A DNA stretch of 64,000 nt, taken from IMG/VR virus record IMGVR_UViG_3300028833_000066; one strand, 5' to 3'. Source of the stretch: a virus (lineage: Duplodnaviria > Caudoviricetes). The position numbers were made by a program, and so were the translations under genes. Positions 32,836 to 51,463 of this stretch are shown here, piece by piece; within the stretch, counting starts at the first letter, position 1; every line of letters starts with the position of its first letter. Below the pieces are notes generated by a model that was not told the DNA's origin, made no database searches, and was given only the letters and a program-made list of their open reading frames with translations.

Positions 32836-33076
32836 AAAATTTTTATAAATTTGTAAAAATTTGGCTGCCGGCAAATATTTGACTTGTGTCAAACACTTGA
32901 CAAAAATAGTTAGTTAGTCATAACTAACTCCTAAAAAATTTTTTTATTTGGGGCTTGACAACTTGACACGAATGTGATATAATGGTAGAGGTGGGAGAGT
33001 ATCTGGCGGCGCCGGCAGAATTTTGTGCCGGCATGATTTTTATGTCGGCAAAGAAAAAAAGGGTAGTTTCCTACCC

Positions 33077-33316
33077 TTATTCGCGATAGTCATCATAGAT
33101 TTCAATACTGTAAGGAATAGCCACAACTTCATGTGCGTCTACATCATGAGCACAACATCCTTGAGTAATTTCAATGTCTTCATTGAAAGCAAAGTTTCTT
33201 CCAATAATCAAGGGATGCTTTTGCTTGTGCATAAAATTTACCAATTCTTCAACGGTAGAGAAATTCTTTATTCCCATGTAGTAATCAGAAGAGGTGCGAG
33301 TGAGAACAAATTTCAT
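33077..33316 (-). CDS. Hypothetical early protein
   Basis: Own promoter, RBS and terminator; IEIYDDYRE C-terminus. Confidence 0.7.
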   Translation of the reverse strand: MKFVLTRTSSDYYMGIKNFSTVEELVNFMHKQKHPLIIGRNFAFNEDIEITQGCCAHDVDAHEVVAIPYSIEIYDDYRE

Positions 33317-33478
33317 AATGAATCCTTTCTGGTTTTAAGGACTGTCCTTGTCCTCTTTCATCTTTTATTATATTCATTTTATTTTATTTGTCAATACCTT
33401 TTTGAAAAAATTTTATGCCGGCACGAAAAAAGGGTAGTTTCCTACCCTTATGGTTCAACTTCAATATCATAGGCACTA

Positions 33479-33733
33479 TTAACAAATCTCTTTTTCATTT
33501 TTATACCATTTGTTTGTATCTGCGTAAGAAGGAAGTTTGTCAATATGGGTTATACGATTACAGGCGAGAGGAGGACATTCCATCATTTCATGAGCACGCC
33601 ATTCTGTGATTCGTGTGCCTTGAATGATAGGAGTATCATTTTTGAAATAGATAGTACCTACGCCTGTAACGGTTACGCGAACATAAGAGGGATGTTTTTC
33701 GTAGGCTTCAATTTGCTTGCGGATTTTATTCAT
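33479..33733 (-). CDS. Hypothetical early protein
   Basis: Own promoter and RBS. Confidence 0.6.
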   Translation of the reverse strand: MNKIRKQIEAYEKHPSYVRVTVTGVGTIYFKNDTPIIQGTRITEWRAHEMMECPPLACNRITHIDKLPSYADTNKWYKNEKEIC

Positions 33734-33857
33734 ATGATTGCTCCTTTCGGTTTGTGAGGTTTCCTTCCTCTTTCATCTTCTATTATACTCACTTTATTTT
33801 ATTTGTCAATACCTTTTTTGAAATTTTTGCCGGCGTAAAAAGGGCAGTTTTCTACCC

Positions 33858-34010
33858 TTACAGAATCACCATTTCACCATTCTGGTCTTTAACGCACTGG
33901 ATAAAGGCACCCGCCATGATGAGTTCATTCTGACGCTTGCGTGCTTCTTCAATGGTTGCGGCACGAGCAAAGTCCATGCGGTTATTGAGAATATAATAGA
34001 TTGTGTACAT
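33858..34010 (-). CDS. Small early protein (50 aa)
   Basis: AAGGAG RBS; MYTIYYILNNRMDF... Confidence 0.55.
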   Translation of the reverse strand: MYTIYYILNNRMDFARAATIEEARKRQNELIMAGAFIQCVKDQNGEMVIL

Positions 34011-34037
34011 TTTTTATTTCTCCTTTCTAACAACTGA

Positions 34038-34247
34038 TTAGAAACCTAAGATAAATGAAAGTTTTAAGGGAAAAGAAGTATTACAATCTGGACACTTGAT
34101 ATAATAATCAATATGATTGCGTGTATCTTTTTTCCAATGAATTTGCGGATCATCTGCGGTAAATTCAAAGACACACCCACACGCACATTTGATTGTGCAA
34201 ATTTTGACAAGATTATTTTGTTTTTTACCATGCTGAAGGATTTTCAT
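34038..34247 (-). CDS. Zinc-ribbon protein
   Basis: CACGC..CPDC. Confidence 0.65.
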   Translation of the reverse strand: MKILQHGKKQNNLVKICTIKCACGCVFEFTADDPQIHWKKDTRNHIDYYIKCPDCNTSFPLKLSFILGF

Positions 34248-34270
34248 TTTATTTCTCCTTTCTGATTAGG

Positions 34271-34489
34271 TTAATCGCCAACGATTGCTTCTGTCAAATC
34301 CATCCAATCATCATAACGTTCAAGAATCTTAACGTCTGTGGGTTCAAATACGCCTCCGCAACAACCACAAATTACGTTCGTGATAGTTTCACCATCGCCA
34401 CCAATGATAGCAATGCCACCGAAGATGTTGGTTTCACCTTCATTGATGAAGTCAGGATTGATGACTTCAAATTTTACTTGCTGATACAT
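34271..34489 (-). CDS. Hypothetical early protein
   Basis: VICGCCGGVFE; own promoter. Confidence 0.7.
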   Translation of the reverse strand: MYQQVKFEVINPDFINEGETNIFGGIAIIGGDGETITNVICGCCGGVFEPTDVKILERYDDWMDLTEAIVGD

Positions 34490-34622
34490 ATGTACATTCC
34501 TTTCTGGTTTAGAGTTTTCCTTCTCTTGATTACAATTAGATTATACCATAAATTTTAAGAATGTCAAGTGTTTTTTTGAAAAATGTGCCGGCCAAAGAGT
34601 TAGATAAATCTAACTCTTTTTA

Positions 34623-34904
34623 TTATAGCAATGCGGCAATAGCATTATCTACCGCTTCTTTATATCTTTCACCCAGACGAGCCGCTACAGCCTTGATAAG
34701 TTTGAGCGAAGTTGCGGGGTCGCTGAGAAAAGTTTCAATGGCATAGTCATCGCTATAATATACATGAAGATCTTCATGAAGATTACGCAAGAATTTACTG
34801 TCCCACGGGTTATAAATATCATTCTGTTCAAGCAAGTTCTCAACAATAGTGTCAATGTCGTCAGGCGTGATGGTCAGGGTGACAGTCTTGGTGATATTTT
34901 CCAT
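34623..34904 (-). CDS. Hypothetical early protein
   Basis: Own promoter and RBS. Confidence 0.65.
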   Translation of the reverse strand: MENITKTVTLTITPDDIDTIVENLLEQNDIYNPWDSKFLRNLHEDLHVYYSDDYAIETFLSDPATSLKLIKAVAARLGERYKEAVDNAIAALL

Positions 34905-35077
34905 TGTTTTGTCCTTTCTGGTGTTAAGGATTTTCCTTTCCTTTTTACAAGTAAATTATACCACAGATTAGAAAAAAGTCAAGAGTTTTTTGAGTTAGCG
35001 GCAACTAAATTTTATGCCGGCCAAGTTAGTCATAACTAACTTGCGGCAAAAAGAAAAGAGGGCCGAAGCCCTCTGCC

Positions 35078-35413
35078 TCACGCGAGGCGGTAGGTGTTGG
35101 GCTTGCCCTCAATCTTGACGATGCGATCAGCCCAGTTGTGGGTCAGACCGTACTGGATCTTACCCTTGGTGAAACCCTCAGGCAGATTAGCCTCAACCTG
35201 CTCGAAGATCTCCGCCACGGTCAGCGGGGCAGTCGTGAGGGCGAAGACACCGCGGACGATGTCCCACGCGGTCTCATAGCCCGCGTCCTTCTCGGCCTTG
35301 GCGACTGCACCCTTATTCAGTTCGGCTTCGAGTTCGGTCTTGATTTCGTCAATATTGGTCACGGTCTCACCATTGAGGAAGGAAACGAGAGACTTGATGG
35401 TGGCAATACGCAT
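35078..35413 (-). CDS. Winged-HTH-like early protein, paralog A1
   Basis: LTVAEIFE..FTKGKIQYGLTHNWADRIVKIEGKPNTY. Confidence 0.75.
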   Translation of the reverse strand: MRIATIKSLVSFLNGETVTNIDEIKTELEAELNKGAVAKAEKDAGYETAWDIVRGVFALTTAPLTVAEIFEQVEANLPEGFTKGKIQYGLTHNWADRIVKIEGKPNTYRLA

Positions 35414-35620
35414 AGTAGATACCCTTTCTGGTTTTTGAGACTGTCCTTGTCTTTTCATTTATATTCTACCACATTTCGTGGAGAATGTCAAGCATTTTTT
35501 AGGAAGTTGCGGAAGGTTTAACAGTCCCAATTACGCATTACCGCCCAACTAATGCCACCGCTTACATCCTTATTATAGCACAGGATTTGCTGTTTGTCAA
35601 GGGCTTTTTGAAGATTTTTT

Positions 35621-35775
35621 GTTTCAAGGTTTGCTACTTGTGGGCTCGAACTACTCTTACGCCATTTCCAATTACCAACCGAAGGAGTAGCAGAGAGAGG
35701 AGAACCAAGTTGAACGGTATTGTAGGTTTGACTGGGCGTCACCATCACCAGATGGAGCACTCTCTCCCTTGGAAC
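35621..35775 (-). ncRNA. Candidate small RNA with paired ends
   Basis: Promoter 35782-35809; 5' GUUCCAAGG pairs with 3' CCUUGAAAC; no convincing ORF. Confidence 0.4.
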
Positions 35776-35884
35776 AATTATATTATATCATAATTTGCCA
35801 GAAAGTCAATTACAAAAGTGTTAAGATTTTATTACAATTATATTAACAGGCCGGCTCAGTTAGATACAACTAACATAAGAGCAA

Positions 35885-35991
35885 AGAGAAGGGGAGGAAT
35901 CGAACCTCCCTTGGTTTACCACAACCTACGGCGAATCGAACGCCCTACGACACCTTTCGGGTATCTGCTGTTACCAGTGAGCCACTTCTCT
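35885..35991 (-). ncRNA. tRNA-like RNA with acceptor stem, D-like arm and two T-loops, but no canonical anticodon arm
   Basis: AGAGAAG/CTTCTCT stem; TGGCTCACTGGTAACAGC; GGCG-TTCGATT-CGCC; GGGAGG-TTCGATT-CCTCCC; promoter at 36150-36177. Confidence 0.65.
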
Positions 35992-36238
35992 TTTAATTGT
36001 GAAGAATTTTGGCTGTCCCTCGGGTGCCTTGTATCATTCTTCACAGTTCCGTATAGGGACTTGCAAGTGAGGTTGTCTGTGAGGATGCCTTACCCCGAAT
36101 GACTTATCAGGGGCCTCGTTCCGTTTTCCTCTCCCCTTGGAACAATTACATTATACCGCAATTTTGAGAATTGTCAAGTGGTTTTGAAAAAAAAGATTGC
36201 TAAGTTTTTAACAACCCGTGACCGGCAAAAAAGTTAGA

Positions 36239-36454
36239 TTACTCTAACTCTTCTTCTTCCTCTTTATAATATTTTTGATTGTCCTCAAAGCACTCTTTTG
36301 CGAAAAAGCAAATACCATGATGGTTGAGATAACAATGGGCACAATGATGATTATTTTGGATACATTTAGCAAGGTATTCATTTAATACTTTTATTGTTAA
36401 TTCCTCTTTATATATGGCTTCGATTTGTCGCTGTAACTGTTTTTCATTCATCAT
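36239..36454 (-). CDS. Small Cys/His-rich protein
   Basis: CAHCYLNHHGICFFAKEC. Confidence 0.55.
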   Translation of the reverse strand: MMNEKQLQRQIEAIYKEELTIKVLNEYLAKCIQNNHHCAHCYLNHHGICFFAKECFEDNQKYYKEEEEELE

Positions 36455-36728
36455 CACTATTATCCTCCATCGTATCTTCATATCCGTATACATCGCCTGC
36501 CCACCGAATTTCATCTTCTGCAAAATCCGTAGGGGCATCGGGGTCAACATCATCTGCGGCGAGCCAATCTTCCCAACTCTCCCAGAATGCACCCCAGTCA
36601 TCGCAATCTTCCATCGGGTCATCAATGTGACAAATACCCATCTGGTCGCAGTAGGGGCAATCGCCATAGGCATTCACGGGGCAGTAGGTATAGTCGCCAT
36701 TGTAGGTTCCCTTTTTCACATCACGCAT
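36444..36728 (-). CDS. Acidic Cys-rich protein
   Basis: CPVNAYGDCPYCD..CHIDDPMEDCDD; GGAGG RBS. Confidence 0.65.
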   Translation of the reverse strand: MRDVKKGTYNGDYTYCPVNAYGDCPYCDQMGICHIDDPMEDCDDWGAFWESWEDWLAADDVDPDAPTDFAEDEIRWAGDVYGYEDTMEDNSDDE

Positions 36729-36903
36729 TTTTCTTTTCCTCCATTTTCATTTTATGATTTCTCCAAATTTTAGCATAGAAGACTACTTTTTCAGGATATT
36801 GTATTTTTGAAAAACCTTCACAAACCTGATAGAAAGTATCAACATAGATAGCATGGCAATGCTTACAGAGAAACTTGATGATCGTATTTATAATGGTGGT
36901 CAT
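36721..36903 (-). CDS. Hypothetical early protein
   Basis: AAGGAGG RBS; promoter 36926-36954. Confidence 0.55.
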   Translation of the reverse strand: MTTIINTIIKFLCKHCHAIYVDTFYQVCEGFSKIQYPEKVVFYAKIWRNHKMKMEEKKNA

Positions 36904-37094
36904 TGTTCTTCCTCCTTTACGCTCTCATTATAGCATTGTTTATACCATTTGTCAAGAGTTTTTCTTGCGGTTTTACGAAGTTTTTTCTTTAAGCGACGAC
37001 GTGCGGGAGTGCTTTGATCTATCCATTGACGACACCCTGTATTCAAATCCCAAGCTGCAAGTTCATCATGATATTTATGCTCGTTCTTACGCAT
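36900..37094 (-). CDS. Basic hypothetical protein
   Basis: AAGGAGG RBS; promoter 37117-37146. Confidence 0.55.
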   Translation of the reverse strand: MRKNEHKYHDELAAWDLNTGCRQWIDQSTPARRRLKKKLRKTARKTLDKWYKQCYNESVKEEEQ

Positions 37095-37168
37095 TTATTA
37101 TCCCTCCTTACATGCCTATTATAGCATACATAGGAAAGTTAGTCAAGCCTAATTTTTTCGCCGGCACC

Positions 37169-37444
37169 TTAACGGCTATAATTAAGGATGTCACGACCTT
37201 CCTTAAAGTCATAGATAGAAATCATAGTGCAGTCTTTGTCATATAGATAGATAGCGGCGGCTTGAAGTAAAGCAATAATATCGTCACCGCATTCACTCTT
37301 ACCGTTCTGGCCGTATACCGTAATCATTTGATACCGATGCTTCTTATCACGAAGCTGCTGACGCAAAGAATCATTTTCAAGACGTAACTGGTCAAGTTCC
37401 TCTTCCAATTCGCTAATACGCAGGCTCATTTCAAATTCATCCAT
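37169..37444 (-). CDS. Coiled-coil early protein
   Basis: Own promoter and RBS. Confidence 0.65.
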   Translation of the reverse strand: MDEFEMSLRISELEEELDQLRLENDSLRQQLRDKKHRYQMITVYGQNGKSECGDDIIALLQAAAIYLYDKDCTMISIYDFKEGRDILNYSR

Positions 37445-37542
37445 CGTGATTCCTCCTTAGTTATTTCTTCTTACAGTTTGATTATATCATAAAGTAGACA
37501 GTTAGTCAAGACTAATTTTCTTGCCGGCGGCAAATGGGAACA

Positions 37543-37746
37543 TTAGTTCCCATTCGCACGACTGACAGAAAGGTCTACCAGTTCATAAGAACGCTCAATA
37601 TCAAACCGACAGCCGCATTTATCACAACGACATGACCACCACTGTGCGGCACCATCCAGTCCGCTAAAATCATCACCGTAATCTTCAATGGTATAATCTT
37701 CCGAACCACACACGGGGCAAGCCTCTTTGTCAAAATTTTTACGCAT
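37543..37746 (-). CDS. Zinc-ribbon protein
   Basis: CPVC...CDKC. Confidence 0.65.
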   Translation of the reverse strand: MRKNFDKEACPVCGSEDYTIEDYGDDFSGLDGAAQWWSCRCDKCGCRFDIERSYELVDLSVSRANGN

Positions 37747-38131
37747 TTTCCTGTGCCTCCTTTTCCTTTTCCTTGGCTTCACGCTTAGCCTTGTCGCGGG
37801 CGATCTTCTCTTCCTTTGCCTTGACCTTTTCGGCTTTCTCAGCCTGCTTGGTGTTGTAAGCATTGATTTCGTTCTGCATCAGTTCGCGGGCAGTCATGTC
37901 TTCGCGTTCCTCTGCTACGATGACGCCTACGCGGCAATAGCGTTCGACGCCATTTTTATCGGTCAGAATGCAACCCCACTGTCTATCATTGATTCTGCGA
38001 TACTCTGCATTATCTGTCCAAAAGGCATTGGGTTTAACACCATTAACAGAAGCAGAGTCCAGGTCAAAAATTTCAGTGAAGATACGGTCACGGAGGTCAG
38101 CATCAACAACAGTCTTCGCAATCTTCGCCAT
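37739..38131 (-). CDS. Early protein with Lys/Ala/Glu-rich tail, paralog B1
   Basis: KAEKVKAKEEKIARDKAKR; similar to 44245-44619. Confidence 0.7.
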   Translation of the reverse strand: MAKIAKTVVDADLRDRIFTEIFDLDSASVNGVKPNAFWTDNAEYRRINDRQWGCILTDKNGVERYCRVGVIVAEEREDMTARELMQNEINAYNTKQAEKAEKVKAKEEKIARDKAKREAKEKEKEAQENA

Positions 38132-38435
38132 AGAGATTCTCCTTTCGGTTTGTAGGGTGTCCTTCCCTTGATTACAGTTAGATTATATCACACATTTTGA
38201 TTATTGTCAAGAGATTTTTCAGAAGTTTCTGAAAATTTTTGTGTCCTCTCCGCATAAGCCAACCCTCTGGGGTGCTTATGCACGTGCGTTTCTTTACCGC
38301 CCCACCGAAGATTTCTTCGGGATGGTCGTCACATCCTCTTGACATTATTGATTATACCTGATGCCAAGACTTTTGTCAAGTAGTTTGTGCGATTTTCTTT
38401 TGTTAAGTTTTTCACAAGCGGGGCCGGCATAATAG

Positions 38436-38888
38436 TTAGTTATGACTAAACAACTGTGCTTCAAAGTCACGGGCAAGTTTGCGGTGTTCATAGGTGGCAA
38501 GCCAATTAATAGCCCATTCAGTGGCTATATATTCAGAAGGAATGTCAAAGTATACACTGAAAGCCGCGTCACGCTTAATCTCGTCATCCTCAATCCAATC
38601 AATTTCTTTGCGGGTTGCCCAATGTCCTAACTCGTGGAGGATAGCAAGAGTAATGTCAGAGAAATTATTTGCGAGAGGACAACGATTGACAAAATCTTCA
38701 CGAAATGCAACGTCCTCTTCTTCGGGTATGTAATTAATAACAGAGGGCACAAGCAAACGCGGGTTTGGCTTGTTATTAATATCCATTCCCCAATTATTGC
38801 TCATTCGCTTGCGTGCGATTGTTACGCGGTCGCCAATGGCCTTGCTTGCAAACTCGCGGATTAATTGAATCTGCATCATCTTTATCAC
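38436..38888 (-). CDS. HExxH metallopeptidase-like protein
   Basis: ILHELGHW...E..A..WA. Confidence 0.65.
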   Translation of the reverse strand: MIKMMQIQLIREFASKAIGDRVTIARKRMSNNWGMDINNKPNPRLLVPSVINYIPEEEDVAFREDFVNRCPLANNFSDITLAILHELGHWATRKEIDWIEDDEIKRDAAFSVYFDIPSEYIATEWAINWLATYEHRKLARDFEAQLFSHN

Positions 38889-38953
38889 TCCTTACACCCG
38901 TATTATATCACGCACAATAGAGTTAGTCAAGTATAACTTTGCCGGCGGCTGTC

Positions 38954-39205
38954 TCAACCCGCATAGAGTTGAGACAGAAAGTAGAGGTTGAGGACAATGC
39001 TGGAAAAATGAAGCAAGAAGTCATTTACATGGCGGTTCTGGTTAGTAAAGTCCTTAAAGATACCAATAAGAGCAATGCCAAGGCCGAACCAAGCAGAGCC
39101 GAAACCGCAAGTGATGATGAGAACAACATTGAGAACCATGCCCGCAGCACGCAAGTCCTGCCATTCAAGTTTATAAGGGGCATAAAGATTAAAGAACTTA
39201 CGCAT
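38954..39205 (-). CDS. Small membrane protein
   Basis: Hydrophobic segments; own promoter. Confidence 0.6.
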   Translation of the reverse strand: MRKFFNLYAPYKLEWQDLRAAGMVLNVVLIITCGFGSAWFGLGIALIGIFKDFTNQNRHVNDFLLHFSSIVLNLYFLSQLYAG

Positions 39206-39519
39206 CTGGATTTCCCCTTCCCTTTTGTTCATCTATATTATATACTAATTTTTGATTTTTGTCAAGAGTCAATTTTGAAGTCCGCCACTCAATCGGGGCT
39301 ACCCGCTCATCCTCTTGCAGTGGGGTTCTCTTCCTCTTGACATCTTGATTATAGCATATAATGTGAGGTTAGTCAAGCCTAATTTTTATGCCGGCGACAG
39401 TTAGTTATGACTAAATAACTATTATGATAAAAAAAGAAAACCACCCCGAAGGGTGGCAAGGATGGGTTATTTCTCACCAATTACGCGACGCCAGAGATAG
39501 TGGCAACCTTGCGGGAGGC

Positions 39520-39852: not shown

Positions 39853-40334
39853 AGGGCAATTTCCTTTCTGGTTTTTAAGTGTTTTCCTTCACTTGATGTC
39901 TTTATTATATCATGGATTTGGGAGTTTGTCAAGGGGTTTCGCAAACTTTTTTCGCCCATTATGTTTGCTGGTGGCCAAATGTTTCTGTTTCCATGCGTTT
40001 TGTCTCTGTTGACTTTCGGCAACCACCTTGACTTGTCAGTGTGACTCCCTCACCTGACAATATTAATTATACTCTAATTTTGATTTTTGTCAAGCATTTT
40101 TTGAAAATTTCTTTGATAAATTTTTGACAATTGATGGTTATGTAGTCATAACTAACCGCCGCGCCGGCACGAAAAAAGGGTAATTAGATACCCTTCTTTA
40201 CAGAATCCTACACCAGAAAGCCGCGAGAAGAAGCCCCAAAAAGTAGTGAAGAATTATAGGTTTATCATCTTTGCGGCAAGCATTAGCGGTATATACTATC
40301 CAGACAAGAGTAAGCACGATGGCAATTGCAATTT

Positions 40335-44619: not shown

Positions 44620-44894
44620 TTCCTTTCTGGTTTTTAAGAGTTTCCTTCTCTTATGTCTTGATTATACTACAGAGTGGAGGTTTTGTCAAGAGGAATTTTT
44701 TATCATCGTGAGGAGGTGTCCCTCATCCTCTTGACAATTATTATTATACTCAAAATTTGATTTTTGTCAAGTATTTTTTTCTATGAATATTTATAAATTT
44801 TTTGTATAATTATGCACTGCCGGCACGAAAGTTAGTAATGACTAAATAACTATTGTATGCGTCAAAAGAAAAAAGACCCCGAAGGGTCTTTTAC

Positions 44895-45227
44895 TCACCG
44901 CAGGCGATACACATTACCGCCCTTGGTCTGCTCAACGCTCACAGCATCGTTCCAGTAGTGCAGGAGAGCATACTGTACCTTACCCTTGGTCATGCCATTG
45001 GGCAGAGTATCGCCACAGCTCTCCATCAGCTCCGACAGCGTAGCTCCATCAGTAGCCAGCTTCAGCTGTCCAAGCACCAGCTCGCGGGCCGATTCATACA
45101 GCTCCCGATTCGCAGCAGCCTTCTCGGCATTGCGATTCAGCTCCCGCATCAGCTCCGCACGGGCATCCGCCATCTCAGGCACGTTCTCAAGGAAGGAAAC
45201 AAGGGACTGCATAGTGGTCTTCTTCAT
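44895..45227 (-). CDS. Winged-HTH-like early protein, paralog A4
   Basis: ATLSELME..MTKGKVQYALLHYWND. Confidence 0.75.
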   Translation of the reverse strand: MKKTTMQSLVSFLENVPEMADARAELMRELNRNAEKAAANRELYESARELVLGQLKLATDGATLSELMESCGDTLPNGMTKGKVQYALLHYWNDAVSVEQTKGGNVYRLR

Positions 45228-45620
45228 AGTGATATCCTTTCTGGTTTTTAGGACTTTTCCTTGTCCTCTTTACATCTTGATTATACCACAGTTTTGAGGT
45301 CTTGTCAAGTGTTTTTTGAAACTTTTTTTTCGTTTGCGGCAAGATTTCCGTGGCCTTTGGAATCTTGGGAGAGCAGTCCATCTTGCCGCATTCTTTCGGG
45401 TGGTGCCCCTCTGTCCTCCCGACACTTTATATTATACTCGGATTTAGGTTTCTGTCAAGTGTTTTTCGCAAAAAGTTTTGTAAAGTTTTTAACAATGTTG
45501 TTAGTTAGTTATAGCTAACTCGGCCGCCGGCAAAAGAGTTAGTTTCAGCTAACTCTCGTAATTATGCCGGCAGAAAAGTTAGTCGCAGCTAACTTTGCCG
45601 ATAAAAAAACTGACAGCGGC

Positions 45621-46070
45621 TTACGCCACCGCCAGCCCCGCCAGCGTCTTTTCGTTGGTCAGTTCAGCTCCGTCAAACTTGATTTGGAGCTCCCGCCCGT
45701 TCAGGCTCAGGTCTCCGGCCACCCAGAAGGGAACGCTATCCTTGACCCAGTGCTGACCAGCCAGCTCGGTGATGATCCGCTCAAAGTTCTCGCCCTTGTT
45801 GTGGTGGGTGTCAGCTTCCAGATCCTCGGCCTTGCCGATGATCTTGGCCAGCCCCTTGGCAATCAGGGCCAGCTTGTCAGCTTTCGCGACGCGGATGCGA
45901 ATCTTGGCCATGCCGCCCCGCTTGCTGGAAGCGTGGTCCAGCTTCAGCACGGCGTCAGGCAGCTCGGGCAGCTCGGCGGCGAACAGTTCGCCGTGGTGGA
46001 CAAAGCCGAGGACATAAGCATCAGCGGCAGAATGGGCTTCGTAGGTGTTCAGCATCTCTTCGCGGGTCAT
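45621..46070 (-). CDS. Early protein, paralog E1 (possible PD-(D/E)XK-like fold)
   Basis: NKGENFE..PFWVAGDL..QIKFDGA; AGGGAGG RBS. Confidence 0.7.
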   Translation of the reverse strand: MTREEMLNTYEAHSAADAYVLGFVHHGELFAAELPELPDAVLKLDHASSKRGGMAKIRIRVAKADKLALIAKGLAKIIGKAEDLEADTHHNKGENFERIITELAGQHWVKDSVPFWVAGDLSLNGRELQIKFDGAELTNEKTLAGLAVA

Positions 46071-46595
46071 CGTGGTGGCCTCCCTTGCTTTCATCTTACA
46101 AGTAGATTATACAGTGCCGGACCGATTTTGTCAAGAGGTTTTTTGAAAAAAGTTATTACATTTCTGTTAAGATTTTATAGACTTTTCGTAATACTTTTGT
46201 AATAGTTTCGTGCTTTAACGTGTTAAAGCGGAGATACCTCGGCAGGTGAGGTATCCCACGGTGGAGGTACTTCGGCAGGTGAGGTATTGCCGGCAAAGTA
46301 GTTAGTGACAACTAATCTGGTTAGTCATAACTAACTCTTATAATACTTATTTAGTCATAACTAACTCCGCGAAAATAGTTAGTTAGTTATAACTAACTTA
46401 AAAAATCGCACCCTCGCCGTGGGTCCGACCGGTTCTCCGCTCCTCTGGTTATAGTATAGCACACTATGGAAAAATGTCAAGAGGTTTTCAAAAATTTTTT
46501 GAAAAAATTTTGCCGGCAAGATTTTGAAAAAAGTGCTTGACAAGTCCGGACAAGTATGTTATAATCAAGATGTAAAGAGAAGCAAGGAGGAAGAA

Positions 46596-46760
46596 ATGAT
46601 GAAGAGTTTCGAGGTTGAAATTAGCTGGGTAGAGGCTCATGGTTTCCGTTATGTGGTGAAGGATGGCAAGCTGTATTGGCAGACCGCGATTCAGACCGCG
46701 GAGATGGACGAGGATGGTCATATTGTATGGCATGAAAAAGAATATTTTAATCTTCTGTAA
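46596..46760 (+). CDS. Small early protein
   Basis: Promoter 46537-46565; AAGGAGG RBS. Confidence 0.65.
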   Translation: MMKSFEVEISWVEAHGFRYVVKDGKLYWQTAIQTAEMDEDGHIVWHEKEYFNLL

Positions 46761-46832
46761 AACCTCTTGACAAAACATTGACCGTCTGTTATAATCAAGA
46801 TGTACCAAAGAGATAGAAAGGAAGTAGGAACA

Positions 46833-47048
46833 ATGTACAAAACTACTTGGATTATCAGTGATGAAAGTGACGAGGGTATCTATCAGACAGAATTGACCTT
46901 GTATCATTTCGGAAAAACTCCCAAATTTCCCAGTTGGTACATGGAAGAAAATCACTCTTACGTGATTGAAATGGTTTGGAATTTCAAATTGATTGTTCGT
47001 CCTTCAATCTTCTTTAAGTGCCTGACCCATCAATACATTATCAAGTAA
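46833..47048 (+). CDS. Small early protein
   Basis: Promoter 46768-46795; RBS. Confidence 0.55.
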   Translation: MYKTTWIISDESDEGIYQTELTLYHFGKTPKFPSWYMEENHSYVIEMVWNFKLIVRPSIFFKCLTHQYIIK

Positions 47049-47124
47049 AAAAGTACTTGACAAATCCGGCAACCTGTGCTATACTTAGATCGTACCAAGG
47101 GAAGAACAAAAGGAGGATCACAAA

Positions 47125-47433
47125 ATGATCACCATGCGTCATCTGCTGACCCTGAAAGAAAACGACGGCATGACCCTGAAAAACGGCGAGATGATCACTT
47201 ATAAAAGCGGCTGGCAAGTAGCCACCGAAGGCGTGGAATGTGTAAGTCCGAAGGATGCCATGCGTGCGATTAAGCAGTATAACGGCACTTGCGGCGTGTG
47301 GTACGCTGGCGGTATCTACTACATTGACAAAAGCCACCGCGTGAGCACGAAACGTGAGGCCATGGAGATCGGCCGCAAGTGCAAGCAGATTTCCGTCCTG
47401 CGCTGGCATGATATGGGACTTGTCTACTGCTGA
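47125..47433 (+). CDS. Hypothetical early protein
   Basis: AAGGAGG RBS; own promoter. Confidence 0.75.
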   Translation: MITMRHLLTLKENDGMTLKNGEMITYKSGWQVATEGVECVSPKDAMRAIKQYNGTCGVWYAGGIYYIDKSHRVSTKREAMEIGRKCKQISVLRWHDMGLVYC

Positions 47434-47551
47434 GCAGTAGGCCGGAAAAATTTCTTTGAAAAAGTTTTGAAAAAGTGCTTGACAAATAATCGGGAATATG
47501 TTAATATATAGTCACCGGGAGGGACCCCGGAAGATAAAGGAGGAAACGAAA

Positions 47552-47719
47552 ATGACTCACATCAACAACCTGCCCCACACCTTCCGCGCTTGGATTGTCG
47601 CCCGTGAGGTTGATGGCGAGCTGTGGTTCTGGGGGTCTTGGGACTCCCGCGAGGCCGCGCAGGCCGCGGCGTGGGATATCGGCGGCGTGGTCGTGTCCCG
47701 CGACTGGGTGGAGGCCTGA
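47552..47719 (+). CDS. Small early protein, paralog F1
   Basis: WIVAREVDGELWFWGSW. Confidence 0.7.
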   Translation: MTHINNLPHTFRAWIVAREVDGELWFWGSWDSREAAQAAAWDIGGVVVSRDWVEA

Positions 47720-47913
47720 GCCTCCACCCCGGCACCGGATCCACCGGCGCCGTTTTTTATGCCGGCACAAAAGTTAGTTATGACTAACTGATTCGGATCG
47801 GCGGTTAGTTATAACTAACCGGAGTATGTTGCCCTGGCGCTCGGCTGAAAAAAGTTTTTAAAAAACTTTCAAAAACCTCTTGACAAACCCGCGAAAGTGT
47901 GGTAAGATTAAGA

Positions 47914-48022
47914 TGTACCAAGGGAAGAGAGAAGAAGAAAACAACCTCTCCCAAGCGCATAACTTGGTGAAGTAAAATCAAAACTCTCTACCAAACAGAC
48001 GAAACTTTCTTCCCTTGGTACA
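47914..48022 (+). ncRNA. Candidate sRNA closed by a perfect 15-bp terminal stem
   Basis: Promoter 47880-47908; TGTACCAAGGGAAGA...TCTTCCCTTGGTACA; no ORF. Confidence 0.55.
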
Positions 48023-48094
48023 CAAAAACCTCTTGACAAACCGGCCGCAATGCGCTATAATAAGACTGTAAAGAGAAGCAAGGAGGAAACACAA

Positions 48095-48271
48095 ATGCTG
48101 AACACCGAAGAAATCCGCAACGTCCCGACCTACGCCTACGGCCATCCCTATTGGGTGGTGCGCGAGGCGGACGGCGAGTACTGGTTCTATGGCGCGTATG
48201 ACACGCTCGCCCGCGCTCGCGAGGTGGCCGCGATGGTGGACGGCCTCCCCGTGGAGAACCCCGCGGCCTGA
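48095..48271 (+). CDS. Small early protein, paralog F2
   Basis: WVVREADGEYWFYGAY. Confidence 0.7.
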   Translation: MLNTEEIRNVPTYAYGHPYWVVREADGEYWFYGAYDTLARAREVAAMVDGLPVENPAA

Positions 48272-48529
48272 CCCGCCGCGGGTCTTTTTTTGCCCGGATC
48301 GCCGGCATGAAAAAAGTTTGGAAAAATTGCAAAAAGGGCTTGACAGACTTGACATATCATGCTATAATAAGGATGGTGGAGGAGGGCCCAACTATATAAG
48401 TTAGTCATAACTAACTAAATTGCCGGCGAAAAAGTTTGCGGAAAATGAAAAAACCTCTTGACAATTCCGGCAAGATATGCTAATATATAGTCACAGGGAG
48501 GAACCCTGGAAGATAAGGAGGAACGCAAG

Positions 48530-48691
48530 ATGCTGACTGAAAATTCTGGAAAGTACGAAATCCTTGGTTATCTCGTGGAAAATGGCTTTGACCTCGGTGA
48601 CATGACAATGGATGAATGGGCTACGGCCTACACCATGGAGGAACTGTGGGGCATCGTCCAGTATATGCTCGGGCAGGTGGAGGACTGGTAA
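48530..48691 (+). CDS. Small acidic early protein (53 aa)
   Basis: AAGGAGG RBS; promoter 48458-48485. Confidence 0.6.
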   Translation: MLTENSGKYEILGYLVENGFDLGDMTMDEWATAYTMEELWGIVQYMLGQVEDW

Positions 48692-48764
48692 GTCCTTCGC
48701 AATCTCGAAAAAAAGTACTTGACAAAATACACCTTATCCTGTATAATTAAGATGTAGAAAGGAA

Positions 48765-49202
48765 GTGCTCACAATGACGATCTGGTTCGACATGGATGGC
48801 ACAATCGCTGACCTGTATGGTGTGAACAACTGGCTTGACTATCTGCTTGCCCACGATGCTACACCTTACAAGGTTGCAAAGCCTCTTGTCAATATGAACG
48901 TGCTTGCTCGCAAGCTGAACGCTTTACGTAAGCAAGGTTACAAGGTTGGTATCATCTCTTGGCTGAGCAAAAACAGCACTGCCGAATATGACAACGCCGT
49001 GACCTTGGCAAAGCGTGCTTGGCTGGCTGAGCACTTGGCAAGCGTGGCCTTTGATGAGATCCGCATCGTCTCCTATGGTGTGAATAAATGGCAAGCCTGC
49101 GGTGAAGGAATCTTATTCGACGATGAAGAGAAAAACCGCAAGGATTGGAAAAACGACGCCTTTGAACCTTGCCACATTATGGAAGTCTTGAAGAGCCTGT
49201 GA
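48765..49202 (+). CDS. HAD-superfamily nucleotidase-like protein, paralog C2
   Basis: IWFDMDGTIADLYGV...ILFDDE. Confidence 0.8.
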   Translation: MLTMTIWFDMDGTIADLYGVNNWLDYLLAHDATPYKVAKPLVNMNVLARKLNALRKQGYKVGIISWLSKNSTAEYDNAVTLAKRAWLAEHLASVAFDEIRIVSYGVNKWQACGEGILFDDEEKNRKDWKNDAFEPCHIMEVLKSL

Positions 49203-49791
49203 CAAGGTTCTTTTTTTATAATAGTACGGTTAGTCATAACTAACTCGCTTGCCGGCATTAAAAAAGAGTAACCACTACATGGTTACTCTTTTGCCTTGTC
49301 ATTGGCAAGGGCAAGGGCAAACGCCTGCATGATGAAGCCGATCACAACACCTATAAGCCACCAATCACACCGAGACAGATAGCACATAAGCCCGCAAATA
49401 GTGCTGAGGAAGACGCCGAGATAGCCCATCATTTTAGCCCCTTCTTTCCTTTGGTTTCACCTATATTATATCAGAAATTTTGTAAAAGTCAAGTAATAAT
49501 TTTGTAATAGGTGGAGGATTCTGCTCCGAAAAGTCTACCGGCAAATAATAAGAAAAAAGGGCTTGACAAAATCGCCGGCATAATGTATAATAAAGATGCA
49601 CCGGAACGGAGAGACAGGGGAGAGTGAAGACATGAGTTAGTTATAACTAATTACCTTTTCGGCACTGGTGGAGGCTCAAAAAAAATTTTTGAAAAATGAA
49701 AAAGTGCTTGACAAGTCCGGCATTGTGTGCTATACTTTAATCACGGTGGAGGGAGACCGAAGCCGAATAGAAAGAAAAGGGGACTTCAAAA

Positions 49792-50010
49792 ATGACTATC
49801 CGCGAATACTTCGACACTATCTATGCCACCGAGGATTTTGAGGACGCCGCCGACTATGAGCGGACTATCTACCACTGCATGGAAGAGGACTTCGACGACT
49901 TCACTATGTGGGCAGTGGAAAACGGCATTGACCTGACCGCCACCACTGAAATCATGGGCGAAACCGTGCCCGTGTTGCTCGCGTGGGCGTGGGATATGTG
50001 CGAAGAGTGA
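49792..50010 (+). CDS. Highly acidic small early protein (possible DNA mimic)
   Basis: D/E-rich 72 aa; own promoter. Confidence 0.65.
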   Translation: MTIREYFDTIYATEDFEDAADYERTIYHCMEEDFDDFTMWAVENGIDLTATTEIMGETVPVLLAWAWDMCEE

Positions 50011-50256
50011 AAACCCTTCGCCTTTTCTTTTTTTGTAAAAAGTGCTTGACAAGTCTGCCGGTCTGTGCTATACTATCATCAGAGGAAGGGAAAACGCTTC
50101 GGACCAACGGCGGACCTGCCCATTTTTATTTTTGACTATCTTTGATCTTTGTGGACTATGGGCAAAAACTTTTTTCGTAAAAATGCAAAAAAGGGCTTGA
50201 CAAGTTTACCGGCAAGGTGTATAATCAGGGTGAAGATAAGGAAAGGGGACATCACC

Positions 50257-50709
50257 ATGATGAACACTCTGCTGACCGCCTACAACAAGCTGACTGCCGC
50301 CACCATCTACTTTATCGGCTTCGTCCTCTCCGGCACCGTCTACGGTGGCTATTTCACCGAAATTCCCACCGCCGCCCTGAAACTTGACCACGAAAGCACC
50401 GCCCGCGGCGGCGCGGCGAAAATCCGCATTCGCTTTAATAAGGACTTAAAGCTTGCCCTCAAGGCACAAGGCAAAGTCAAAGCCCTTGCCACCATCGAAG
50501 CACTTGCCGCCGACCCCCGTTATAACAAAGGCGACAACTTTGAGAAGCTGATTGCTGAACTGAACGGCATTCAGTGGGCGAAAAACTCTGACCCCTTTTG
50601 GGTCGCTGGAGACCTTGAAATCAACGGCGAACAGGTACAAGTCAAGTTTGACGGTGCGGAACTGGTGAATGAAAAATCCCTCCGCAAAGCCCTGACGGTT
50701 GCCGCCTGA
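50257..50709 (+). CDS. Early protein, paralog E2
   Basis: NKGDNFE..PFWVAGDL..QVKFDGA. Confidence 0.7.
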   Translation: MMNTLLTAYNKLTAATIYFIGFVLSGTVYGGYFTEIPTAALKLDHESTARGGAAKIRIRFNKDLKLALKAQGKVKALATIEALAADPRYNKGDNFEKLIAELNGIQWAKNSDPFWVAGDLEINGEQVQVKFDGAELVNEKSLRKALTVAA

Positions 50710-50843
50710 GTGGCAACCTTCTTTTTTTATTTTTTCATAATAGTTACTTAGTTATCACTAACTCGCTCGACTTTAATGCTTTAATGCAATGAAGTGGAGG
50801 AAAACTATTCGCGTCAATTTACACGCTTTAATGCGTTAAAGAG

Positions 50844-50976
50844 TTGTTAAATTTTTAACAATCGCCCCACCCTCATGTTTTCTTCAATACTTTAATGCAT
50901 TAAAGTGGGTCTGCGGCAGAATACTTATTTAGTTATAACTAACTCGCTCGATGCTATATTGTTAAATTTTTAACAA
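50844..50976. promoter_or_regulatory. Two perfect Rex-like operators (TTGTTAA-N4-TTAACAA)
   Basis: 50844-50861 and 50959-50976; degenerate copies at 36197, 38400, 40113, 43170 and 45478. Confidence 0.6.
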
Positions 50977-51463
50977 GCGGCCCACCTTTATGGTTTAGCA
51001 CTTTAATGTGTTAAAGTGGAGGCACCTGTAACACTTTTGTAACAAATTAAAATCCTGCTTAGTCGGCCGGTATCGTTATAAATCCATAATATTTGAAAGG
51101 TGGAGGGTGGTTCTTGTTCGCGTTTTATTTTTCAAAATAAGCATACCCCCGCCCGCGGAAAAGGATTTATAATTGTTACACCCCACAGTGAAATTTTGTA
51201 ACATTTTTGTAACAAATTCGGACCTACCCTAGCTTCCAGGTGCTAGCTTCCAGCATTTTCCAGACCCCGGGGGCTAGCTTTCGGGATTTTTTGAAAAGTT
51301 AGTCTAGACTAACTAGGGGCGTGCCCAAATTCCACCAACTTTTTTAAAAAATAACTTAAACCACCAACTTTTAAAAATAACCTTCAAAACTAATACTCAA
51401 ACACTTGACAATGCCAAGCCCGATATGTTATAATTTAATCAAGGCAAAGAGGTGTTGAAACAA

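Follow-up and report, generated by a model that had tools for sequence, protein, structure and literature searches.

The window analysed here, a stretch of 64,000 nt, belongs to a phage with a genome of 179,585 bp (the whole phage, about 180 kb). It is a gut or rumen phage in which TAG is read as an amino acid, and its sequence suggests a siphovirus-like phage of anaerobic Bacillota. The terminase is 32-36% identical to those of Geobacillus E3, SPbeta-like and phAss-1 phages, an anaerobic NrdD is encoded, and neither an integrase nor a resolvase was found in the genome. Positions 32662..51434 form, on both strands, a putative early-gene island of 18.8 kb, which contains 46 promoters (at most one mismatch), 36 TAG-free ORFs, 30 operator palindromes, seven Rex-like boxes, and 30 GCCGGC sites.

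The island has a GC content of 41-49%, compared to 32-40% outside. None of its 36 ORFs contains an in-frame TAG, and TAG is also absent as a stop codon (TAA 21, TGA 15), while 91 in-frame TAG codons are present in 10 large ORFs outside the island. Both the elevated GC content and the lack of in-frame TAG codons had been part of the original observations, and they were verified, the latter across all 36 ORFs. Because the island genes are written wholly in the standard code, they should be translatable before TAG is reassigned by the phage. The combination of TAG-free island ORFs and TAG-rich late genes fits the published model of early and late recoding (10.1101/2021.08.26.457843). The sequence evidence supports the view of a modular early array of the host-takeover type, comparable to that of SPO1, in a TAG-recoded phage.

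Promoters of the two arms

The window contains 31 exact copies of TTGACA-N16-18-TATAAT, versus 0.05 expected from shuffled sequences. All of them are located at 32662-51434, and genome-wide there are 40 in 179,585 bp, so that 31 of 40 lie inside the island. When one mismatch is allowed the number in the island rises to 46; 38 of these have an upstream A-tract (-48 to -38), 27 an extended -10 motif (TGn), and 32 a spacer of 17 bp. The analysis thus showed about 46-50 predicted promoters of near-maximal sigma-A design, with a UP-like A-tract, TTGACA, 17 bp, TGn, and TATAAT, in agreement with the earlier claim that almost every gene has its own near-consensus promoter with an A-tract.

As noted earlier, the array diverges at about 46.5 kb, namely, at P46480(-) and P46537(+), which are 57 bp apart. 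This divergence point (46289..46536) is flanked by a cluster of five operators (46300-46398), and the minimum of the cumulative GC skew falls on it. The minus arm (32662..46480) has promoters with at most one mismatch at 32662-32690, 33367-33394, 33782-33809, 34540-34567, 34955-34982, 35463-35491, 35572-35600, 35782-35809, 36150-36177, 36927-36955, 37118-37146, 37481-37509, 38182-38210, 38351-38379, 38902-38930, 39237-39265, 39348-39376, 39904-39932, 40066-40093, 40801-40828, 40997-41025, 41809-41837, 42444-42472, 43025-43053, 43123-43150, 43383-43411, 44155-44183, 44661-44689, 44743-44770, 45280-45308, 45431-45458, 46106-46134, and 46453-46480. The promoters of the plus arm (46537..51434) are at 46537-46565, 46767-46795, 47057-47085, 48033-48061, 48340-48368, 48719-48747, 49563-49591, 49708-49736, 50046-50074, 50197-50225, and 51405-51434, and three weaker ones with two mismatches and an A-tract are at 47479-47507, 47880-47908, and 48458-48486. 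The plus arm also harbors a reverse unit on the minus strand (promoter 49465-49492, ORF 49283-49432). At the left edge an isolated plus-strand promoter (32955..32983) is predicted to drive a short transcript ending at a GCCGGC hairpin terminator (33010-33041).

About 15 promoters are not directly followed by an ORF, but at least nine of them are the upstream member of a tandem pair without a terminator in between, so that their transcription probably continues into the next gene. Only three to five promoters are candidates for driving stand-alone RNA genes.

Genes, small RNAs, and turnover of the cassettes

The promoters drive the 36 small ORFs, which are mostly orphans, and several non-coding RNAs. 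Many units share a stereotyped 5' hairpin, a ribosome-binding site, and a closing terminator. The class A cassette, typified by 44895..45227(-), is composed of A-tract, promoter, 5' hairpin, AAACCAGAAAGGA ribosome-binding site, ORF, and terminator. The palindrome and GCCGGC of the stereotyped spacers do recur, but a clear intrinsic terminator was found for only about 14 of the 36 ORFs, and thus not every unit is self-contained.

Several ORFs have paralogs within the island. The 110-aa ORF at 44895..45227(-) belongs to a family of four (35078-35413, 39520-39852, and 42609-42947). The first gene of the minus arm encodes 149 aa (45621..46070, minus strand; paralog 50257-50709 on the plus strand), and its family is the most widespread one in the islands of relatives (33 loci); a PD-(D/E)xK-like fold is a weak lead for this protein. 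A 217-aa DEDDh-exonuclease-like ORF (43451..44104, minus strand; phrog_20187, weak matches to DNA polymerase exonuclease) has a paralog at 41060-41776(-), and a 144-aa NT5C-type 5'-deoxyribonucleotidase (40335..40769, minus strand) has one at 48774-49202(+). The other TAG-free ORFs of the minus arm are located at 33077-33316, 33479-33733, 34038-34247, 34271-34489, 34623-34904, 36239-36673, 36444-36728, 36721-36903, 36900-37094, 37169-37444, 37543-37863, 37739-38131, 38436-38879, 38954-39205, 40815-40952, 41888-42412, 43207-43359, and 44245-44613, and none of these matched a Pfam family above threshold. Those of the plus arm are at 46596-46760, 46833-47048, 47125-47433, 47552-47719, 48095-48271, 48530-48691, and 49792-50010.

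The predicted presence of sRNAs in the array is partly supported: a conserved family of about 55 nt, whose members are preceded by a promoter, has 18 copies in 12 contigs, but most ORF-less promoters are the tandem upstream promoters. One member, S1a (46398..46452, minus strand, about 50 nt), has its own promoter (46453-46480), an invariant core (GGACCNACGGCG), and a T-run. Its paralog S1b (50075..50135, plus strand) is preceded by its own promoter at 50046-50074, and has a different location in the relative G001. An ORF-less transcript of about 265 nt (35882..36149, minus strand) is predicted to start from P36177 and to end with a tRNA-like element, consisting of a D-arm-like part and a GGTTCGATTCC T-arm, and a terminator; ARAGORN did not call a tRNA for this element.

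Comparison with relatives revealed the gain and loss of cassettes that had been predicted to occur at the spacers. G001 (about 75-80% identity) carries 59 promoters along with 26 operators on 23 kb, and its alignment with the phage shows insertions, deletions, and replacements of whole cassettes as well as one translocation; the borders of these changes are located at promoters, the ends of ORFs, and operator spacers. For example, G001 contains a whole extra cassette at the operator triplet at 45503..45594. This whole-cassette shuffling resembles the PeSL cassettes of T4. A relative with 97% identity has no cassette change over 11.4 kb, and thus turnover is not very fast. A single GC-rich island is also present in each of the distant complete relatives G003 and G005, where it carries 24-34 exact promoters and 25-51 operators.

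The spacer palindrome and the Rex-like boxes

The recurring spacer motif AGTTAG-N6-CTAACT was found 30 times in the window at one mismatch or less (0.13 expected), exclusively at 32908-51314. Its full form is the 18-bp palindrome AGTTAGTYA|TRACTAACT, and 12 of the 30 sites have exact arms. GCCGGC, of which 30 of 47 genomic copies are inside the island, usually lies 5 nt from the operator.

At six promoters the operator overlaps the -35 region. These are the class C operators at 37137..37154 (fused to the -35, TTGACTAACT, of P37146(-)), 37500..37517 (P37509(-)), 38921..38938 (P38930(-)), and 41016..41033 (exact arms; P41025(-)), and one member each of two pairs: at 39367..39416 the site 39367-39384 (two mismatches) is fused to the -35 of P39376(-) and followed by GCCGGC and the site 39399-39416, and at 44174..44222 the site 44174-44191 is fused to that of P44183(-) and followed by GCCGGC (44197-44202) and the site 44205-44222. 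Such fusions number five to six in this phage (G000) and seven in G001, and none was found in the distant relatives G003 and G005.

Two further promoters have an operator at +30 to +45, i.e., 48399..48416 (exact arms, 31 nt 3' of the P48340 -10 and upstream of P48458) and 49635..49652 (44 nt 3' of the P49563 -10 and upstream of P49708). Elsewhere operators lie behind a terminator and 59-78 bp 5' of the next -35, and most sites are at about -95. Single operators are at 32908..32929 (two overlapping registers, 32908 and 32912, immediately 5' of P32955), 34598..34615 (exact arms), 35858..35875, 36232..36249 (exact arms), 42533..42550 (between the terminator 42562-42600 and P42472), 44830..44847 (after the terminator 44862-44893), and 49228..49245 (after the terminator 49191-49220). 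Pairs are at 34993..35041 (34993-35010 and 35024-35041, with GCCGGC 35016-35021 between) and at 47772..47820 (47772-47789, exact arms, and the weaker 47803-47820, after the terminator 47730-47760). Three exact-arm operators at 45503..45594 (45503, 45537, 45577) alternate with GCCGGC (45526, 45566), and the cluster of five (46300, 46319, 46349, 46377/46381) lies downstream of S1a. A hub without genes and promoters (50740..51320) contains three operators (50746, 50927, 51297) and two perfect Rex boxes (50844, 50959), together with CTTTAA-N4-TTAAAG palindromes (three copies) and TGTAAC-N5-TGTAAC repeats (two copies).

The exact 18-mer is present in at least 120 Bacillota genome stretches, with one copy each, which is intergenic in all but about six cases, where it falls within a long ORF. 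The genes that begin no more than 250 bp from these bacterial sites encode FeoA (17 loci), ABC exporters (11), DUF3793 (9), DtxR-family repressors (7), ZIP transporters (7), DUF2325 (5), FeoB (4), and GpmA (3). In five host genomes sites precede the genes for ABC exporters, for binding lipoproteins, and for an NrdI-like flavodoxin, and in G006 and G008 the site directly precedes a DtxR-family gene. Single intergenic copies beside genes for metal uptake and repressors identify the palindrome, by genomic context, as the operator of a host Fe/Mn-sensing repressor of the DtxR/MntR family. No protein of the phage or its relatives has a DtxR domain above threshold.

Rex is a redox-sensing repressor of the host. 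Seven boxes of the phage island match the published clostridial Rex consensus: the two perfect ones of the hub, three with one mismatch, at 36197..36214 (about 20 bp 5' of the P36177(-) -35), 38400..38417 (upstream of P38379(-)), and 45478..45495 (P45458(-)), and two with two mismatches, at 40113..40130 (P40093(-)) and 43170..43187 (P43150(-)). Five of the seven are imperfect and A/T-rich, and are located where UP elements also lie. Taken together, the proposed presence of host operators is supported by genomic context for the main palindrome and by the published consensus for the Rex boxes.

Proposed coupling to the host metal sensor and competing explanations

We somewhat favor the explanation that the island is a takeover array in which operators of a host repressor couple the early programme to the metal status of the host, and in which cassettes turn over by recombination. 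During infection, the metal-loaded host repressor would bind the phage operators. Because six operators overlap a -35 region, the bound repressor would repress these promoters; at +30 to +45 it would act as a roadblock at two promoters, and operators behind terminators could insulate cassettes. The early programme would thereby respond to host metal, and perhaps also redox, status, while the host regulon would simultaneously face competition for the repressor from the numerous phage sites. Recombination that moves whole cassettes would change the gene content, as in T4 PeSL. Several points argue against this explanation. The operator is placed to occlude RNA polymerase at only six of about 48 promoters, about -95 is an odd place for repression, G003 and G005 lack the fusions of operator and -35, and the stereotyped distance between operator and promoter could simply be inherited from a spacer module that was copied.

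A pure decoy is less likely, yet has to be considered seriously. The operator copies would then mainly sequester the host DtxR/MntR-family repressor (and Rex), so that the entering and replicating genome would derepress host Fe/Mn uptake (feoAB, ZIP, ABC) and redox genes. Each phage genome brings 30 sites (12 with exact arms), versus 1-12 exact-arm sites per whole host genome. In addition to the operator clusters of three and five, the promoter-free hub with its three operators and two perfect Rex boxes, and an array in G005 (about 19 operators with a period of about 44 bp in 750 bp devoid of genes and promoters, plus eight nearby), would be more readily explained by a sponge or nucleoprotein role than by cis-regulation. 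If so, a possible benefit would be the supply of the anaerobic ribonucleotide reductase system of the phage, which does encode NrdD, but this benefit is conjectural. Moreover, a sponge does not need sites that are restricted to the island, stereotyped within the cassette, and fused to the -35 at six promoters.

The real binder of the palindrome could also be a phage protein, for example, a 124-aa winged-helix protein or an island orphan. Such a protein would switch early transcription off or organise it, in the way that MrpR acts at the SPBRE sites of SPbeta and gp71 at the L5 stoperators, and the resemblance of the palindrome to the host operator would have arisen by mimicry or by chance. Where phage early regions carry many copies of a repressor site, the repressor is usually the phage's own (SPBRE/MrpR: PMC10516654). 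The gene for the winged-helix protein is TAG-free, has its own perfect promoter, and is conserved in G000, G003, and G004, and the GCCGGC adjoining the operator is specific for phages (63 of 314 viral sites versus 0 of 137 host sites), which hints at a partner on the phage side. We nevertheless regard this as rather improbable, because the identical 18-bp site is used across many Bacillota beside metal and DtxR-family genes. Furthermore, the winged-helix match is generic and sub-threshold (MarR_2, 20 bits), its BLASTP comparison with a DtxR-like host protein gave E = 7.9, G005, with the largest array, lacks an ortholog (its best matches are different winged-helix proteins), and no MrpR-like tyrosine-recombinase fold was found in the genome. 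It is very improbable that the repeated spacer, with its terminator, palindrome, GCCGGC, and promoter, serves chiefly as a substrate for PeSL-type shuffling by recombination or as a structural element such as origin iterons at the divergence point, without a role for a host regulator: cassette indel edges do fall in spacers and operator clusters do coincide with the GC skew minimum, but the switch of the coding strand explains this minimum equally well, the sites span 18 kb rather than one locus, and the exact match to the operator of a host regulon would be left without explanation.

The array of host operators in such an early region is the new part of the finding. Given the operators between its cassettes, the first genes of this phage are probably linked to the metal sensor of its host or interfere with it.

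The probable early-gene island of a recoded phage

The window corresponds, in reverse complement, to bases 1-63,975 of a virus record of 179,585 bp (G000). Outside the island at 32662-51434, TAG is read as an amino acid, which is exemplified by an ORF of 2752 aa with 21 TAG codons and by the genes for the terminase, a portal-like protein and other structural proteins, which are read through at 2-11 TAG codons each. The G000 terminase shares 32-36% identity with its counterparts in Geobacillus phage E3, in SPbeta-like Bacillus phages, and in phAss-1, a recoded gut phage (PMC10607447). Across the whole genome no match to the Phage_integrase fold or to Resolvase was found, and an anaerobic ribonucleotide reductase is encoded. 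Because of the TAG-bearing genes, the relatives of the terminase, the lack of an integrase or resolvase, and the anaerobic reductase, G000 is a large, TAG-recoded, probably virulent phage of anaerobic Bacillota. The region 43000-47500 has no nucleotide match among GenBank phages. ARAGORN called no tRNA within the window. Outside of it lies a block of 22 tRNA genes (G000:C1:92245-106766), and a tRNA with a CUA anticodon was not found by ARAGORN.

The window contains 31 exact copies of the promoter TTGACA-N16-18-TATAAT, compared to 0.05 expected, and all of them are located within the island; the number for the whole genome is 40. When up to one mismatch is allowed, the island contains 46 promoters, 38 of which have an A-tract at -48 to -38, 27 an extended -10 motif (TGn), and 32 a spacer of 17 bp. 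The two arms diverge between the promoters P46480(-) and P46537(+). The GC content is 41-49%, compared to 32-40% outside. None of the 36 island ORFs (45-238 aa) contains an in-frame TAG or ends with TAG (TAA 21, TGA 15), while ten large ORFs outside the island have 91 in-frame TAG versus 166 CAA plus CAG codons. The palindrome AGTTAG-N6-CTAACT occurs 30 times with up to one mismatch (0.13 expected), exclusively in the island, and GCCGGC is about 10-fold enriched, with 30 of its 47 genomic copies in the island. All these results exceed chance by far and are in agreement with the original prediction of an array of near-consensus promoters that diverges near 46.5 kb, has spacers with a recurring palindrome and GCCGGC, is richer in GC than the rest of the window, and is free of in-frame TAG.

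Along both arms the same order recurs in the sense of transcription, i.e., ORF, intrinsic terminator, palindrome, GCCGGC, in some cases a Rex-like box, one or more promoters, 5' UTR, and the next ORF. The ribosome-binding sites are also stereotyped (AAACCAGAAAGGA or GGAGG). Class A promoters combine an A-tract with a 17-bp spacer and, in most cases, TGn; downstream of them come cAAGATGTAaag, a short 5' hairpin, and AAACCAGAAAGGA as ribosome-binding site. Class B promoters have a 16-bp spacer with an internal AAAAT and are followed by TGTCAnGAGG, 50-110 nt without ORF or terminator, and then a class A promoter. The two promoters form a tandem, and the class B promoters do not represent sRNA genes. 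In the six class C promoters the -35 box TTGACT lies inside the palindrome (TTAGGC-TTGACT-AACT), with GCCGGC just upstream. The units had been predicted to be self-contained, but a clear terminator is present behind only about 14 ORFs, and the remainder form units of two or three genes. Likewise, about 15 promoters indeed have no ORF directly downstream, but at least nine of them are the upstream members of tandem pairs.

In the rest of the genome the promoters follow a second dialect, AATAT-TTGACT-16/17-TATAAT-ATATAT, with an A-tract in only 7 of 44 cases. The genes behind it contain TAG and include replication, nucleotide and tRNA genes, e.g., the ResIII helicase gene at 31190-32581 with 14 TAG codons. 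Therefore, the island represents a distinct transcription class. About 30 occurrences of the second dialect were observed outside the island, nearly all on the same strand, e.g., at 24945-24972, 27496-27523, 30628-30655, and 31173-31201 of the window.

Most island ORFs have no Pfam or PHROG family. The recognized products are two NT5C-type deoxyribonucleotidases and two DEDDh-exonuclease-like proteins; a match to a Lar-like zinc ribbon stayed below threshold. The nucleotidases and the exonuclease-like proteins are pairs of paralogs, and further paralog families comprise two proteins of 149 aa and four of 110 aa, which points to duplication of cassettes. The 149-aa family has no sequence match in the PDB, and a search of the Atlas yielded only leads below 0.9, to PD-(D/E)xK families.

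UP-type A-tracts, consensus hexamers, a 17-bp spacer, and TGn characterize the strongest promoter class for sigma-A/sigma-70 polymerase. The early genes of recoded phages need to be readable in the code of the host (10.1101/2021.08.26.457843). Because the island combines promoters of this strongest class with ORFs that are readable in the host code, we infer that it is the gene set that is expressed first. The presence of TAG-free ORFs in a TAG-recoded genome lends indirect support to transcription by the unmodified host RNA polymerase within the first minutes. The proposed titration of this polymerase by the island promoters is plausible.

The spacer palindrome and its probable link to host metal regulation

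In full, the palindrome has 18 bp and reads AGTTAGTYA|TRACTAACT. When each prokaryotic species was represented by one genome, a scan found it in at least 120 bacterial stretches, with one site each. Among the matches listed, nearly all are from Bacillota (Clostridia, Erysipelotrichia, Anaeroplasma, and Bacilli MAGs), and about 95% are intergenic, with about six sites inside a long ORF. Genes starting at most 250 bp from the site were assigned to families and confirmed with Pfam. Among the matches listed, these encode FeoA (17 loci), ABC exporters (11), DUF3793 proteins (9), repressors of the DtxR/MntR family (Fe_dep_repress plus Fe_dep_repr_C, 124-153 aa; 7), ZIP transporters (7), DUF2325 proteins (5), FeoB (4), and a GpmA-type phosphoglycerate mutase (3). 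Five bacterial genomes were analyzed whole with a looser pattern, and its occurrences precede ABC exporter genes as well as genes for substrate-binding lipoproteins and an NrdI-like flavodoxin. DtxR-family proteins are encoded in each of these genomes, and two (G006 and G008) have a site directly upstream of a DtxR-family gene. Because the intergenic sites adjoin metal genes as well as the gene of the repressor itself, the palindrome is predicted to be the autoregulated operator of a regulon under a metal-sensing repressor of the DtxR/MntR family, which would respond to Fe2+ or Mn2+. The spacing of the half-sites differs from that of the classical DtxR/IdeR box, and the repressor would therefore belong to a distinct subfamily. 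The original prediction of host operators in the array is thus supported, as regards the identity of the main palindrome, by the genomic neighborhood of the bacterial sites.

Clusters of the palindrome in G007 and G008, two cultured Bacillota, were considered as prophages. However, these regions are not dense in promoters and encode no island proteins, but represent neighborhoods of iron-uptake genes. At 1.92-1.97 Mb of G007:C4 and on G008:C3/C5 (L239-L245) the operator marks clusters of iron-uptake-type operons, which encode ABC exporters, binding lipoproteins, and regulators of the AraC and TetR types. These clusters outline an undescribed DtxR-family regulon.

GCCGGC is typically located 5 nt from the operator, often between two operators that are 31-34 bp apart (e.g., at 44197, 45526, 45566, and 48422). 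It adjoins none of 137 host copies of the operator, compared to 63 of 314 viral copies, and is an addition on the phage side.

No DtxR-family protein was found at family thresholds in the phage or in three complete relatives. The best matches to PF01325 have 12.6-19.5 bits, below the cut-off, and are generic winged-helix proteins. One of the candidates, a winged-helix protein of 124 aa, was rejected as a DtxR homolog, with E = 7.9 in a BLASTP comparison with a host DtxR-like protein. It is encoded outside the window (G000:C1:136260-136634; L223:1432-1806) by a TAG-free gene behind a perfect TTGACA-17-TATAAT promoter, is conserved in the relatives G003 and G004, and has a tail rich in Ala, Lys, and Glu, which is similar to the tail of the product of the island ORF 44245-44613. 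The genome also encodes two HTH_3 proteins, for which no link to the palindrome sites was found.

A second host-type site is represented by TTGTTAA-N4-TTAACAA, which matches the published clostridial Rex box. Two exact copies and five with one or two mismatches are present, compared to 0.89 expected, and all are in the island. Both exact boxes lie in a hub at 50740-51320, which is free of genes and promoters and contains three operators and other repeats. Between each of the five imperfect boxes and the -35 box of the class B promoter that follows there are 19-20 bp, and none of the seven island boxes overlaps a promoter, as would be needed for repression by Rex. The hub also contains three copies of CTTTAA-N4-TTAAAG, a fourth being near 46225. 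This motif (CTTTAATGNNTTAAAG) is not proposed as a further host operator, because it had 16 matches versus 8 for the control in 151 Lachnospiraceae genomes, and no regulon was recognized. Further repeats in the hub and at 46140-46290 are two TGTAAC-N5-TGTAAC and two direct repeats CTAGCTTCCAG, and two repeats GATACCTCACCTGCCGA are located near 46250-46290.

Relatives, cassette turnover and non-coding units

In IMG/VR, 88 stretches contain the palindrome; many of them are from rumen and gut contigs of 165-182 kb, and most of the 88 are also dense in perfect promoters. Two complete distant relatives, G003 (169 kb) and G005 (181 kb), were read whole. Each has one island, which contains 34 of 38 exact promoters and 25 of 25 operators in G003, and 24 of 31 exact promoters and 51 of 51 operators in G005. 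Both islands have more GC and less TAG than the rest of their genomes. In one arm of G003 the distance from the start of the operator to the -35 box downstream is 63-78 bp in 10 of 10 cases, which is similar to the 59-78 bp in the window. A fusion of operator and -35 box is found in neither G003 nor G005. In G005, about 19 operators with a period of about 44 bp form an array of 750 bp without gene or promoter (G005:C1:109426-110180; L279:9426-10180), which is located where the early arms diverge, and eight more operators follow about 600 bp upstream. Because G003 and G005 have kept the operator array although the island proteins of the relatives are only 35-60% identical or unrelated, the array is, as judged from these genomes, a conserved trait of the phage family. 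In a contig of 26.8 kb from an Acutalibacteraceae MAG bin (L179, JAZQHA010000217.1), a stretch of 8 kb comprises 16 near-consensus promoters together with 3 operators. This contig is probably from a related phage, and its binning gives a weak hint at Oscillospirales as hosts.

Gain and loss of cassettes at the spacers had been predicted, and this is borne out by one pairwise comparison. A relative with 97% identity is collinear over 11.4 kb without a sizeable indel. In G001, a relative with 75-80% identity, the architecture is kept (23 kb contain 59 promoters, 26 operators, and 35 copies of GCCGGC), and the differences comprise indels, replacements, and one move. A stretch of 83 bp in the window corresponds to 804 bp in G001, where one promoter and a 150-aa paralog are inserted inside a triple-operator spacer, and 72 bp correspond to 3173 bp with about nine promoter-ORF units. 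Conversely, 1599 bp of the window with four cassettes correspond to 301 bp, and 674 bp with non-coding RNA cassettes to 114 bp. The cassette of the sRNA S1b is on the other side of the neighboring gene in G001. Nearly all edges of the differences coincide with promoter starts, ORF ends, terminators, or operators, suggesting that, at least for this pair, turnover occurs by recombination of whole cassettes at the spacer motifs.

The predicted sRNAs were found in part. Most promoters without ORF are explained by the tandem arrangement, but the promoters at 46453-46480(-) and 50046-50074(+) each have a conserved element of some 55 nt under their control, S1a (46398-46452) and S1b (50075-50135). 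The element has an invariant core GGACCNACGGCG and a T-run. Twelve viral contigs contain a total of 18 copies, all with a promoter of their own and with two to three copies per phage (further contigs: L011, L019, L029, L032, L036, L038, L045, L069, L071, and L081). In relatives, S1 is followed by a different palindrome, AAGTTGTACGTACAACTT. RNAalifold yielded a weak consensus of -1.4 kcal/mol with one covarying helix of 3 bp, and the folds of single sequences are no better than those of shuffled controls; despite the three covarying base pairs an overall fold is not established. Rfam contains no family with a match in the window at gathering thresholds, and at E<=1 the island has none except for a chance miRNA match; S1 is absent from Rfam. 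In addition, P36177 drives an ORF-less transcript of about 265 nt (35882-36149(-)) with a tRNA-like element at its end. This element has an acceptor-like stem AGAGAAG/CTTCTCT, a D-arm-like GCTCACTGGTAACAGC, and two T-loops GTTCGATTC, and it was called by neither ARAGORN nor Rfam.

Predicted repressor binding, known systems and significance

The metal-loaded host repressor would be expected to occupy the 30 island sites. At the six class C promoters it would occlude the -35 box, and at two promoters with sites at +30 to +45 it would block elongation. Elsewhere it would be bound between a terminator and the UP element that follows, and it may thereby keep read-through off the next promoter. The fusions with the -35 box and the fixed positions favor such a role as sensor or insulator. 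However, the sites might also soak up the repressor, because 30 sites per incoming genome, multiplied by replication, would compete with the 1-12 exact sites of the host regulon. The latter role is favored by the operator arrays in gene-free regions, and the two roles may be combined. The most far-reaching version is that a family of large TAG-recoded Clostridia phages titrates the metal and redox repressors of the host with 25-50 DtxR/MntR-family operator copies and Rex boxes in its first-expressed region, thereby reprogramming host regulons without any phage protein, while the same sites read the metal state. We regard this as a tentative proposal that is rather unlikely to hold. To our knowledge, host takeover by sponging of transcription factors has not been established for any phage.

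Operators of host global regulators at phage promoters, by which a host signal steers phage genes, are not without precedent. The tox operator of corynephages is under the control of host DtxR, LexA is the repressor of the Bacillus phage GIL01, and NtcA and PhoB boxes are present in cyanophages. In the tox case, as predicted here, the regulator is of the DtxR family. However, in these examples specific genes have a single site or a few, in contrast to 25-51 sites per genome across the whole early region, some of them in gene-free arrays and conserved across a phage family.

Short sites that are repeated 10-30 times between early genes are also known for repressors of phage origin. Stoperators of mycobacteriophage L5 are bound by gp71 and act as roadblocks between genes. 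In SPbeta, the short repeated element SPBRE in early intergenic spaces is bound by the phage repressor MrpR (PMC10516654). Both phages are temperate and encode the repressor themselves, whereas G000 has no integrase, MrpR-like protein, or DtxR homolog. A master-repressor system of the SPBRE/MrpR type was rejected, because no match to the tyrosine-recombinase fold expected of such a repressor was found in the genome and the site is, by its genomic context in bacteria, the operator of a host regulon.

With respect to its architecture the island resembles the host-takeover module of SPO1, which is outlined as a cluster of some two dozen small early genes, organized in numerous short operons and mostly encoding orphan proteins, with ribosome-binding sites of the very-highly-expressed type and promoters of this type that are used by the host sigma-A polymerase (1998, cited in PMC6873191). 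The proposed SPO1-type modular early array fits well with 46 strong promoters for 36 densely packed small ORFs with strong ribosome-binding sites, and no protein homology between the island and SPO1 was found. In contrast to SPO1, the promoters are about twice as many (46-50 in 18.8 kb), the island is, as far as can be told, apparently outside of any terminal redundancy, about 30 host-type metalloregulator operators are present, and the island is the standard-code part of a TAG-recoded genome. The second analogue are the PeSL (promoter-early stem-loop) of T4-type phages, mobile regulatory cassettes with composite motifs of terminator and early promoter that flank small orphan genes in hyperplastic regions and at which whole units are inserted, deleted, or replaced between relatives (PMC2839356, PMC4122927). 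The island likewise has terminator-promoter motifs flanking small ORFs, and G001 differs by whole units; this comparison refers to architecture alone. Host group and sequence differ, and the island spacer additionally contains a predicted protein-binding palindrome and GCCGGC.

Thus, numerous strong promoters and the shuffling of cassettes have precedents in phage early regions, and single operators of host regulators on phage genes as well as multi-copy operators of phage repressors are likewise known. New, as far as we found, is a family-wide array with tens of host metalloregulator operators inside the early region; the literature yielded no published case of such an array, conserved in a family, in a phage of the virulent type. 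The operator and regulon of an uncharacterized DtxR-family type are defined here in uncultured Clostridia. The promoter dialect together with the absence of TAG offers a clean marker of the pre-recoding gene set in amber-recoded phages, and about 46 promoter, UTR, and terminator parts of natural origin and near-consensus design become available. If the sites act as a sponge, the phage would use its own DNA as a weapon and take over the host by titrating a transcription factor. If the host repressor binds, these abundant phages of gut and rumen would sense the iron or manganese status before they commit to the early program, or, alternatively, the incoming DNA alone would derepress metal uptake of the host. 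Either outcome, if true, would tie phage infection to the metal homeostasis of anaerobic Bacillota in a new way.
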